Shown: piece after piece, positions 40,810 to 44,507 of the stretch
Numbering within the stretch: the first letter of the stretch is position 1
How the letters are laid out: each line of letters begins with the position of its first letter
Source of the DNA: Ginglymostoma cirratum
Lineage: Eukaryota
Assembly (NCBI GenBank): GCA_024137785.1
Contig: JAHRHZ010000166.1
Location: 1,225,872 to 1,289,871 of the forward strand
Direction: 5' to 3'
Length of the DNA: 64,000 bases
Position numbers and translations under genes: made by a program
The notes under the pieces: model-generated
Database searches by the model: none
Seen by the model: the letters and a program-made list of their open reading frames with translations, nothing else
What the model was told of the DNA's origin: nothing

Positions 40810-40854
40810 TCAAAGTATTGGATCTTGTTTAAATTTCAAGGGAGCATAAGAAGT
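40810..40854 (-). CDS. Gene B terminal coding exon TSYAPLKFKQDPIL* (ITIM/ITSM-like)
   Basis: Acceptor tttctgatttattctacag|; phase 0 matches upstream exons; T-x-Y-x-x-L-K-F at exon start; TGA at 40812-40810. Confidence 0.7.
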   Translation of the reverse strand, partial: TSYAPLKFKQDPIL

Positions 40855-40878
40855 CTGTAGAATAAATCAGAAACTGTT

Positions 40879-43500
40879 ATAGAACATAGAACAATACAAC
40901 GCAGAACAGGCCCTTCGGCCCTCGATGTTGCGCCGACCTGTGAACTAATCTAAGCCCAGCCCCTACACTATCCCATCATCATCCATATGCTTATCCAAGG
41001 ACTGTTTAAATTCCCCTAAATTGGCATAGAAATATTATCATAGAAACTTGGGAGCAGGGAACGGCAATTCAACACTTGTTCATCAACTTCAGTTAATAGT
41101 TACAGAGTCATAGAGTTATACACTGTAGAAAAGGCACTTCGGCCCAATGGGTCTACGCCAGCATAACTGCTACTAATCACAATTTCTTGCGCTTCTCTCA
41201 TATTGCTGAATGTAATGATATTTCAAGCGTTTATCCGATTTTGTAAGGATTGCAATGTTTACAGTCTCCACTACGTCCCCACGAAGTGCGTTTCAGATTC
41301 CCACCGCCTTCTGAGTGAAAAGGTTTTGCTTTTTTTTCTGAAATGCCCTCTGAATTATCCTGACCCTCTCATGATTGACAACCTCAATCAAGGACATTTC
41401 AGCTCTCTATTCTGCCTGTCCATACCCCTCATAAACTTATACACCTCAGTCATATCCTGTCTCAGTCTGCTTGACTCTTCAAGAAAACAATTAAAGCCTG
41501 TCTAATCCCATCCCACAGATCAATTTCTCCATCCCAGGTAATATACTAATGACTTCTTTTGTAGCCCCTCTAATGATATCACATCCTTCCTGTAATGAGC
41601 TGACCAGAACTGCACATAGTACTCCAATTGTAATCTAACTAACGTTTTGTAGAAGTCTAACATTAACTCCTTGATCTTATATACACCGCAAATGATGAAC
41701 GTAAATGTCCCATATGCCTTCTTAACTATCTTATTCACATACTCTGCCTACTGCAGGGATCTATGAGCAATTACCTCAAGATGCTTCTCTTCTGCTAAGC
41801 TACACAATATCCTGCCATTCATTAAATATTCCCTCATCTTGTTTCTTCTTGTAAAGTGCATCACCCCAAACTTATCAGAGTTAAATATCATTTGCCAAAC
41901 CTGTGCCCCAATGACTAAACTATCTATACCTTCCTGCAACCTTCAATAATTTTCTTCACTATTAACCACATTACCAAGTTTGGTATTGCCTGCAAACTTA
42001 TTAAACATCTCCCCCCAAACCCCATCATCCATACACACATACACACACTACATTTTCATCTATATCATGTGTGTACAAACAATATAGTACTGATCCTTGC
42101 ATTCCACCACTGGACACCGGCCTCCCATAATTTGAACAGTTTTCTACCAATACTAACCCCAGTTTCTGCTCCATCTTGCCAAGTTTTCCTGTATTCTATG
42201 TGTTTTAATCTTATTAATTATTCTCCCATGTTGGACTTTTCCAAAACCTTTGTTAAAATCCATATAAAATACATCAAATGAACAGCCCCATCTACACTCT
42301 TGATGATATTTTTGAAAGATTCTAACAAATTTAATTGACATGACCTCCCTCTGAAAAAGACATACTGACTGTCTTTAATGAACCCATGATTCTCCATATG
42401 GGTATTAATTCTGTCTCTCAAAATATTCTCCAAAAGTTCCCTATCACTAACATGTGATTCACCACCTGTTTTCCTGGTTCATTGCCACCACCCTACGTAA
42501 AATGTGAGACCACATTAGCCATCTTCCAGTCCACTAGCACGTCATCTGTAGCCAGATAGCAATTCAAAATTTGTGTTAGAGGCCCTGAAATTGCTTGCTC
42601 ATTTCTCACAGCAGCCTAGGATGAAATTCATCCAGAACTGGAGATTTGTCCATTTTCAGCCTGACACAGGTTCCGATACCTCTTCAGTTCAAATGTTGAG
42701 CTGTGCAAGTTCCTCAAAATCCCCTTTCCTGAATTCTAATATCTCCTTTTCCAGAGAGAGAGACCGAAGAGAAGTATTTATTTAACACTCTTCCAGTGTC
42801 CTGTGCTTTCAAACACAGGTTGCCCCCTTGGTCCCTAATGAACCTTGCTCTTTCACTGGTTAAACTCTTCCCTTTAATGTACTTATACAAAGCATGAGGT
42901 TGCAGACTTGGTCATCGAGGCGGTGTGTTTTATTGCAGACATTTCGTCACCCTGTTCGGTAACATCGTCTGCGTGCATCCGGTGAAGTGTTAGTGTTCTA
43001 TCCCATTTGTTATTTATCTGCCTCAGTTCGGCTCAGCAAGCAAGTCTGCAACCTCATCCACGACCCAAGCTACAAATCTTCTCAAAAAAACTTTAAAATA
43101 AAAAAAAAGTATTTTAGCATACTCATTAATTCTGTTCGCAAGTTCTCCTTCATTCCCCCTTTTCTGCCCTTCTACTAGCTCTACTAAGTTCCCTCCTGCA
43201 CTTTCTGTATTCCTGTAGGGCCACAGCTGAATTTCTCCCTTTGAATTTGCCAAAAGGTCTACTCTTCTTCTTTATTCAGTCCTGAACATCCAGGGTTCTC
43301 TGAACATATTGCTCTTACCACTCTAATGGGTATATGTTAGACTTGTACTCTCCCCAGCTCATTTTTCAATACCCCCTCCTGCTCTGCTCTAGACCTACCT
43401 GAAAAGAGCAATATCCTGCTCCCAGTCACTTTTGGCCAGATCCTGCTTTGCTTTAATAAAATCTGGCTTCCCCCAATCCAAAACCATATTTTCAAGAAAT
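40879..43500 (-). mobile_element. CR1 LINE fragments (plus a small Penelope piece at ~42895-43080) filling the last intron of gene B
   Basis: ORFs 41520-41738, 41748-41939 and 42153-42433 are CR1 RT; tail agaacatagaac at 40881. Confidence 0.82.
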
Positions 43501-43602
43501 CCGCCCCCCAAACCCTTAATACAATGACTATCTCAGTTTATGTTGTGAAAGATGAAATTTCATCGTATAATTATCCAATTATTACACTTACACGATTCTT
43601 AC

Positions 43603-43623
43603 TTCCGGCTGACTCTTTGGGCC
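43603..43623 (-). CDS. Gene B candidate 21-nt cytoplasmic micro-exon GPKSQPE
   Basis: gtattatag|GGC CCA AAG AGT CAG CCG GAA|gtaaga; phase 0/0, frame-neutral; polypyrimidine tract is weak. Confidence 0.4.
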
Positions 43624-44201
43624 CTATAATACACATCCATTAAAGTAACTGGCCCCTTAACATTTCTGACAGAAGATTGCTATCTCCGCGTACTCATTAT
43701 AAATTGCAGTTGATCACAACAAAAAACGAAAGCTCCTCCACCCACCCTCTGTCGCTTTTAAATTGCATGAGTTCAGTTTAACGTTTTTGGCCCTTTGGAA
43801 CACGCACAGAGTAAACAGAACAGTTCTCTGTTTTCACCCAATGATATGTTTTTAACAATTTAGTTATTTCAACTAGATCACGTCTTTATCTTCTTTTTAC
43901 TCAGGAATACTCTTTGCATCAGTATCGTCTGTTCTCAGAATGCAAAAAGAAACAAAATGCTGTCATCATTGGACCGAATACTTATTTTGTAGCTATGTGT
44001 AATTTTGACTATAAGTCGATCTATGTTTTTAGTTGATTTCACTTCTTTCAAAATAGAAGACAGTGCCACTTCGTATTGATCACAATTATATGTTCAGTCG
44101 ACTTTTGTCACTGTAACCGCCTCTATTAAACATTCTCTAAAACTGGTGTAAGGAGAACACACGTCTTGAGAGAAAAATTATATCAGTTTTCATGCACTTA
44201 C

Positions 44202-44260
44202 CTCCTGGTTTGAATCACGTGTTTGAAAATCTGTTGATTCCTTATCTGTGTTCCAGTTTC
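44202..44260 (-). CDS. Gene B cytoplasmic exon (G)NWNTDKESTDFQTRDSNQE
   Basis: ttattttacatcag| acceptor and consensus GAG|gtaagt donor; phase 1/0, open in frame with the TM exon. Confidence 0.78.
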
Positions 44261-44393
44261 CTGATGTAAAATAAATAACCAGCTTTGTTAAATAAATGTA
44301 TGGCTGATTGGGTTAATTAACATGAAAAGTCAAAAAGCACAAAACGCATACGCAGATCACAATGAATTTTTAGCACCACGGTGCACTTCCTAC

Positions 44394-44507
44394 CTAAGCC
44401 ACAATTCCCGTAGATACATCCACCAACGACAATTAACATCACGACCAGGGAAATCATTGGCAACGTACTCCCATAAACCATTAAAGAACAATCGATATGT
44501 TGCGACT
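44394..44507 (-). CDS. Gene B stalk/transmembrane exon (E)SQHIDCSLMVYGSTLPMISLVVMLIVVGGCIYGNCGL
   Basis: ctctgccttcttcag| acceptor, TTAG|gtagga donor; 114 nt, phase 1/1; ~25-residue uncharged hydrophobic segment preceded by Cys. Confidence 0.82.

Follow-up and report, generated by a model that had tools for sequence, protein, structure and literature searches.

The closest described counterparts of the gene analyzed here are the PRARP/VJC1 receptors. PRARP1 and PRARP2 (reportedly from Fu et al. 2019) and VJC1 (reportedly from Ohta et al. 2019) are said to have a V-C1 layout outside birds and a tail with an ITIM or ITSM, to form disulfide-linked homo- or heterodimers, to be encoded by a gene pair, and to occur in bony fish, amphibians, reptiles, and birds; a signaling logic opposite to that of the T cell receptor (TCR) has reportedly already been noted for PRARP. 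According to citing passages in PMC10751288 and PMC11599192, these receptors are encoded by a non-rearranging joined VJ exon; in the supplement of PMC10751288, PRARP/VJC1 is missing from the rows, as are the gene identifiers that were looked up. Elasmobranch UrIg and UrIg2 likewise combine a non-rearranging VJ with C1 domains and form disulfide-linked homodimers, UrIg being secreted with 3 C1 domains and UrIg2 having 9 (PMC12227049, where ITIM, ITSM, and tyrosine receive zero mentions). The family described below differs from both in having one C1 domain and in reaching the tetrapods.

The window, a 64,000-nucleotide stretch of the Ginglymostoma cirratum genome to which all positions refer unless a scaffold is named, contains a minus-strand gene at 47716-40810 with leader, joined VJ, C1, transmembrane (TM), and two cytoplasmic exons (cyt1 and cyt2). 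All six exons join in frame, with phases 1,1,1,1,0; the predicted product, a type I membrane protein, has 300 residues, 40 of them in the tail. The coding part of the leader exon (47674..47716, minus strand) comprises 14 codons plus phase 1 and has a weak GTTCGA donor; no leader-to-V joint was seen in reads of the four RNA runs described below, and the leader peptide is identical in the whale-shark orthologue model XP_048476286. The V-set domain (46734..47072, minus strand; Pfam V-set E=6.5e-15) includes an FGNG J-like strand, so that V and J form one germline exon, and no site resembling a recombination signal sequence (RSS) was found across 46001-48500. It is followed by a C1-set exon (46344..46646, minus strand; Pfam C1-set E=1.9e-6). 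The whale-shark RefSeq model is 94% identical over V and C1 and is alike in all six segments and the tail. The zebra-shark orthologue model P0002 has no tail tyrosine and retains a stretch of the intron between TM and cyt1; it may be mis-modeled, and until checked it weighs against the inhibitory reading preferred below.

The features on which the signaling argument rests lie in the last three exons. The stalk and TM exon (44394..44507, minus strand), bounded by AG and GT in phase 1-1, reads SQHIDC-S-LMVYGSTLPMISLVVMLIVVGGCIY-GNCGL. It encodes the stalk cysteine, Cys235 (44490-44488), followed by a TM segment (residues 237-261, 44484-44410) without K, R, D, or E, and Cys259 (44418-44416) and Cys264 (44403-44401) at the inner TM end. 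An uncharged TM preceded by a cysteine had been proposed in a sequence-only reading of this DNA, and both features stand. The first cytoplasmic exon (44202..44260, minus strand), which has a homologous exon in the paralogues, ends with a Glu codon in phase 0. The last coding exon (40810..40854, minus strand) supplies the tail E|TSYAPLKFKQDPIL*, with the Tyr289 codon at 40848-40846 and the stop codon TGA at 40812-40810. The earlier description of a tail ending in E|TSYAPLKF had the Glu and the exon junction right, but KF is followed by six more residues, KQDPIL. The Pro at +2 of TSYAPLKF is rare within the family.

The split leader, the V(J)-C1-stalk Cys-TM layout, and the phase-1 introns are shared with TCR chains. 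The gene differs from them in lacking an RSS, a V/J split, and a basic TM residue for CD3 and in possessing a 40-residue tail with its own tyrosine motif; a TCR chain is ruled out by the J-like strand within the V exon, the lack of an RSS, and the uncharged TM. NKp30 (NCR3), which has a lone V domain and a charged TM, is ruled out as well, given the C1 exon that is present and spliced and the uncharged TM.

RNA from four runs (X1, X3, X7, and X8) was compared with positions 38500-48500. The splice from 44202 to 40854 that attaches the tyrosine motif is supported in two of the four runs, by six X7 polyA reads with six different starts and by a single 1,903-nt X1 contig that takes in C1, TM, and cyt1 along with the last exon and 1.4 kb of 3' UTR; the last exon is thus genuinely used. 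Three further joints were recovered in these runs: V to C1 in the X1 contig and one X7 read, C1 to TM in X1 and two X7 reads, and TM to cyt1 in X7 (six reads), X1, and X3. The 3' UTR extends at least over 39431..40809 (minus strand), with the X1 contig continuous over 39431-40854 and the end inferred; a scan for polyA signals gave AATAAA at 39322 as a likely signal. An A>G variant at 44438, present in reads of three runs, exchanges Met252 for Thr, so that the TM remains uncharged. Run X8 has zero coverage here. A different terminal exon near 43930, named in the sequence-only reading as an example of what would overturn it, has no joint in the four runs: the candidate frame (43877..43928, minus strand) shows no sign of use, its acceptor falls outside the 40 best acceptor-like sites, and its match to the last-exon profile is faint (E=0.34).

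In run X3, TM and cyt1 are spliced, but the following intron is retained, which predicts a tail ending in EVSA* without the tyrosine; X3 shows this read-through form only, an observation against an inhibitory role. The retained intron may reflect pre-mRNA, or else a minor isoform. Alternatively, the main product could be a motif-less decoy, either this read-through form or a secreted form that skips the TM exon, with the tyrosine form being minor. Such a decoy would fit the in-frame stop within four codons beyond the cyt1 donor in five of the eight genes with an intact donor, as well as the database models that lack the TM exon (P0013 and P0021) or the tyrosine (P0002). It is nevertheless very improbable, as the polyA reads and the contig of greatest depth (16.8 versus 4.2) carry the spliced tyrosine form and the last exon recurs at the other loci of the cluster.

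These loci lie on the same scaffold. The C1 exon has 11 matches, itself included, at 0.64-1.39 Mb of scaffold C166, and at 0.80 Mb lies a further locus in which V, TM, and tail were found without a C1 match, so that the cluster consists of 12 loci, including pseudogenes. The V and C1 frames are open in six paralogues, every one of which possesses the stalk Cys and an uncharged TM core and ends in T-[LV]-Y-A-H-L-[AT]-F after the same phase-0 junction. Stops or frameshifts were found in four others, one of which has lost the tyrosine. Overall, a homologue of the last exon is present at all 11 other loci, and the tyrosine is retained in 10. The VJ exon of the next paralogue (4785..5120, minus strand) is 55% identical to the V exon of the 47716-40810 gene; its C1 (C166:1222614), TM, and tail lie to the left of the window, and its tail reads TLYAHL. 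In the literature covered, neither the shark cluster nor any of six accessions looked for is described; as most subscription papers and supplements fall outside this coverage, unpublished status is not implied.

Homologues were identified in sharks, rays, turtles, lizards, alligator, birds (to ostrich), a frog, newt, caecilian, lungfish, sturgeon, paddlefish, reedfish, gar, and coelacanth; the named matches include neither mammals nor teleosts, many other matches being unnamed. The nearest are V-C1-TM proteins of 280-340 aa from turtles, lizards, birds, amphibians, and non-teleost fish. In databases, they are labeled as Ig or TCR chains or as uncharacterized, and none bears the label PRARP. 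For comparison, 57 full-length-looking V-C1 proteins were hand-picked and aligned, excluding TM-less and partial models; these proteins are mutually related, so that the counts below are not independent. The stalk Cys is aligned in 56 of the 57 and a tail YxxL/V/I is present in 49, of which 46 have A at +1, 36 have F or Y at +5, and 30 have T at -2 (L/V/I at +3 is 49/49 by definition of the motif). The loss of the tail tyrosine among sharks had been named as a second result that would speak against self-signaling, yet the tyrosine is retained in 27 of the 29 elasmobranch homologues of the lineage to which the gene belongs (lineage A, below). Taken together, the conserved tail tyrosine, the uncharged TM, and the conserved stalk Cys support a receptor that probably signals by itself. 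The inner Cys pair, to which the earlier reading had also drawn attention, is present here but is ruled out as a family trait, occurring in 3/29 lineage-A elasmobranch proteins; its palmitoylation would be a guess.

In a control for chance, 1 of 325 acceptor-like minus-strand sites begins an exon with TxYxx[LVI], namely that of the 40854 exon, and an ITIM/ITSM-like hexamer lies within 20 codons of 9/325. The motif satisfies neither strict consensus, having Thr at -2 where an ITIM, (S/I/V/L)xYxx(I/V/L), requires S, I, V, or L (PMC12151841, in part), and Leu rather than V or I at +3, where it departs from an ITSM. The variant TSYAPL is common to this gene and its whale-shark orthologue and is derived.

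Trees of V plus C1 (FastTree on 71 rows; IQ-TREE on 29 of the 71) separate a shark and ray lineage A (IQ-TREE support 100/99), a lineage B that ranges from sharks to lungfish and the snapping turtle (97/95), and two further sets, one of tetrapods (100/99) and one of Ig/TCR-like rows (97/91). The branching order and the joint monophyly of A, B, and the tetrapod group are weakly supported (67/70), and IQ-TREE issued a long-branch warning for sterlet and gar. Lineage-A motifs have T at -2 in 18/27, a hydrophobic residue at -1 in 22/27, and Leu at +3 in 27/27; tetrapod and bony-fish motifs have T at -2 in 12/14, Val at +3 in 9/14, and a hydrophobic -1 in 0/14; and lineage-B motifs are canonical ITIMs, with S/I/V/L at -2, in 5/6 and have T at -2 in 0/6. 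One lineage-B gene was found in the assembly, on scaffold C168, flanked by IgL-like genes. Its V and C1 are spliced in reads and one X2 contig covers part of its predicted Arg-containing TM exon; no C1-to-TM joint was seen in reads, the C1 contigs running outside the locus, and a search for its tail found none.

The TM charge and the tail motif are distributed in a complementary manner across the family. A charged residue in the TM core is found in 0/49 motif-bearing homologues, whereas Arg is present in 5/7 motif-less ones; the core was defined as residues 5-17 past the stalk Cys (omitting P0162, where the Cys is not aligned), a window chosen post hoc, and an earlier, wider window gave 6/49 versus 6/8 charged. 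Sister pairs that differ in motif and TM Arg include P0100/P0149 (77% identical over V+C1) and P0158/P0165 (60%); a third pair, P0066 and the C168 gene, is 88% identical, the Arg-TM exon of the latter being predicted and partly under the X2 contig. This split is a pattern at the level of sequence, in related proteins some of whose models may be incomplete. The motif-less relatives with a TM Arg, which resemble activating receptors of the LILRA/NKp30 type, are likely to be activating counterparts, and the Arg-TM sisters point to paired receptors.

The residues around the tyrosine bear on the sign of the signal. The C-terminal SH2 domain of SHP-2 prefers T at -2, A at +1, and an aromatic residue at +4/+5, its N-terminal SH2 domain prefers L at +3, both favor F at +5, and SAP requires a hydrophobic residue at -1 (PMC12151841). 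T-x-Y-A-x-L-x-F therefore probably suits SHP-2 better than SAP, and the sign is likely inhibitory: the A at +1 and F or Y at +5 that prevail in the family match the preferences of SHP-2, and the Ser at -1 disfavors SAP for this copy. The sign, which the sequence-only reading had left uncertain because the motif is a hybrid, is thus less uncertain. One alternative is a SLAM-type switch, in which TxYxxL binds SAP or EAT-2, can co-stimulate, and has its sign set by adaptor levels. The lineage-A residues at -2 and -1 would accommodate such a switch, the 22/27 motifs compatible with SAP at -1 being an observation against an inhibitory reading, and the lineage-A motif comes near the TIYxxV/I of CD150 (PMC12151841). 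A switch is nonetheless unlikely for this gene in view of the Ser at -1 here and in the whale-shark orthologue, the invariant Leu at +3 in lineage A, the lack of a hydrophobic -1 in the tetrapod and bony-fish motifs, and the Arg-TM sisters, which suggest that separate genes handle activation.

The tyrosine could also belong to a capture or activating receptor, either as a YxxPhi trafficking signal for AP-2 endocytosis or as a hemITAM-like Syk site. YAPL fits YxxPhi, near the C terminus and after an acidic residue, but conservation at -2, +1, and +5 exceeds what YxxPhi requires, a DEDG-type acidic run is absent, and the motif and TM Arg are mutually exclusive in the family, as in inhibitory/activating pairs. 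There is only a slim chance that this is the role of the tyrosine.

The preferred reading, to which we assign a probability of roughly two in three, is a disulfide-linked inhibitory immune receptor: a 300-residue type I protein with a germline VJ and a C1 domain, whose stalk Cys precedes an uncharged TM and whose tail bears one tyrosine motif. Two chains would pair in Fab or TCR style and be locked via Cys235; upon ligand binding, a Src-family kinase would phosphorylate Tyr289, and SHP-2 (or SHP-1) would dock with its tandem SH2 domains on the two pY motifs of the dimer and damp activating signals. The chain could pair with a second copy of itself, with a paralogue, or with a lineage-B chain that carries a canonical ITIM. 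The orthologue, as modeled by AlphaFold, has V, C1, a TM helix at 235-262, and a disordered tail (mean pLDDT 75.6), and it speaks for this reading in that V plus C1 matches the fold of Fab light chains; top Foldseek and PDB matches are antibody chains only, a result that library bias leads one to expect. SHP-2 is activated far more strongly by two pY motifs than by one (PMC6994217), so a single-motif chain would gain from covalent dimerization via the stalk Cys. PMC6994217 argues, however, that both motifs are needed on one molecule for full activation, and bridging is only one of two models in PMC12151841. A further proposal, possible but doubtful, is a stalk-disulfide heterodimer of a lineage-A (ITSM-like) and a lineage-B (ITIM) chain that splits a PD-1-like motif pair to switch on SHP-2, with exchange for an Arg-TM, motif-less chain making the receptor activating.

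The uncharged TM, the Cys, and the tyrosine motif alone amount to an ordinary inhibitory-receptor design: PD-1, BTLA, SIRP-alpha, and LILRB/KIR-L share the uncharged TM and the tail tyrosine motif. A logic opposite to that of the TCR, as the earlier reading had phrased it, is true of this gene, but inhibitory IgSF receptors are usually built in this way. The gene differs from PD-1, BTLA, SIRP-alpha, and LILRB/KIR-L in the single hybrid TxYAxLxF per chain, in the antigen-receptor-like C1, and in the predicted interchain stalk Cys. A shark SIRP-family member, with similar inhibitory logic but different ancestry, would also combine VJ, C1, and a tyrosine tail, and the Atlas feature search placed SIRP clusters at ranks 6 and 9 (0.95 and 0.94). 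SIRP proteins have a V and two C1 domains and several tail tyrosines, compared with one C1, spliced straight to the TM exon, and a single motif here, so that a typical SIRP is ruled out on layout. The stalk Cys and the V-C1-TM proteins found as nearest homologues also make a SIRP origin improbable; SIRP sequences are absent from the trees, and the comparison with SIRP concerns layout.

The family is probably the published PRARP/VJC1 group. The two share a germline V+J exon without RSS, one C1, a TM, and an ITIM/ITSM-like tail, and the range of homologues matches the range given for PRARP; homologue searches returned no PRARP-named sequence, so that the link is drawn from layout and range. They differ in the 12-locus shark cluster, with its pseudogenes and V-only member, and in the Arg-TM motif-less sisters. 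The gene is thus an additional representative of a known, little-studied kind of receptor; new here are the cluster of 12 loci, an old second lineage that has canonical ITIMs, and the Arg-TM motif-less sisters. The gene that the RAG transposon invaded has its closest living models in non-rearranging VJ-C1 membrane receptors, and this family, mislabeled as Ig or TCR in databases, is expanded in sharks and still present in turtles and birds. Sign, pairing, and ligand become testable through the gene model, the motif grammar, and the Arg-TM sisters. If the A/B heterodimer were real, jawed vertebrates would have retained a two-chain receptor system that is germline-encoded and TCR-shaped, a living model of a pre-RAG antigen receptor with both signs.

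Much of the sequence flanking the cluster is repeat or N. MHC class I matches on the 1.97-Mb scaffold C166 numbered 0/28, and a nicastrin search for synteny gave no match anywhere and carries no weight as evidence. The neighbor PFAS, about 0.36-0.4 Mb from the last cluster copy, contrasts with the APH-1A name on a lizard homologue model; in human, these genes lie on 17p13 and 1q21, respectively. ORF and exon scans of the flanks (32 candidates, Pfam) identified PFAS, a uromodulin-like D8C exon, a 7TM fragment, and a retroelement.

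The 12-locus cluster on the C166 scaffold of the nurse shark genome (G000) is of the birth-and-death type. It includes four broken paralogues of the study gene, located at ~777, 942, 980 and 1089 kb, whose V, C1 or TM exons are disrupted by stops or frameshifts. A further paralogue, on the plus strand at ~802.6-805.2 kb (L049:1638-4152), possesses V, TM, cyt1 and last exons, the latter encoding GLYAQL, and no C1 match was found at this locus. This paralogue, which is similar to the 209-aa homologue P0049, is a V-only derivative of the NKp30/PD-1 shape.

The cluster is flanked by PFAS exons at ~1.75-1.79 Mb (L107-L111) and, at L096 and L080, by a D8C exon similar to that of uromodulin and part of a 7TM gene of the rhodopsin family. 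Stop-interrupted LTR retroelement/ERV-like fragments with a Pfam match to RT-RNase H are found at 1.445-1.455 Mb (L057). Within the window, LINE reverse-transcriptase fragments (28371-30376 and 48805-49825) and high-copy SINE-like repeats (40878-41019 and 48350-48440) were identified; the SINE-like repeat at 40878-41019 is inside the last intron of the study gene, with the acceptor 24 nt away.

A lineage-B VJ-C1 gene, flanked by IgL-like genes, is encoded on the plus strand of another scaffold, C168, at ~36.8-40.3 kb (L038:1992-5483). Its predicted TM exon carries an Arg 8 residues past the stalk Cys, and its V-to-C1 splice is present in two RNA runs. The C1 contigs run on into sequence that this locus lacks, a hint that lineage B may have a second copy or allele.

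Read-through of the cyt1 donor could allow a motif-less isoform: among the study gene and paralogues with an intact donor (n = 8), five reach a stop within four codons (window 44201-44190 in the study gene). The V domain of the study gene may be polymorphic, with four V-exon differences in reads of run X1 (window 46781, 46839, 46863 and 46947), three of which were also found in X7. Read variants in the TM exon map to window 44438 and 44446; Met252>Thr, in the TM, occurs in reads of three runs, and one TM change is silent. Finally, two homologues carry misleading database names, namely, the fence-lizard protein P0205 (APH-1A isoform) and the caecilian protein P0077 (PD-1).
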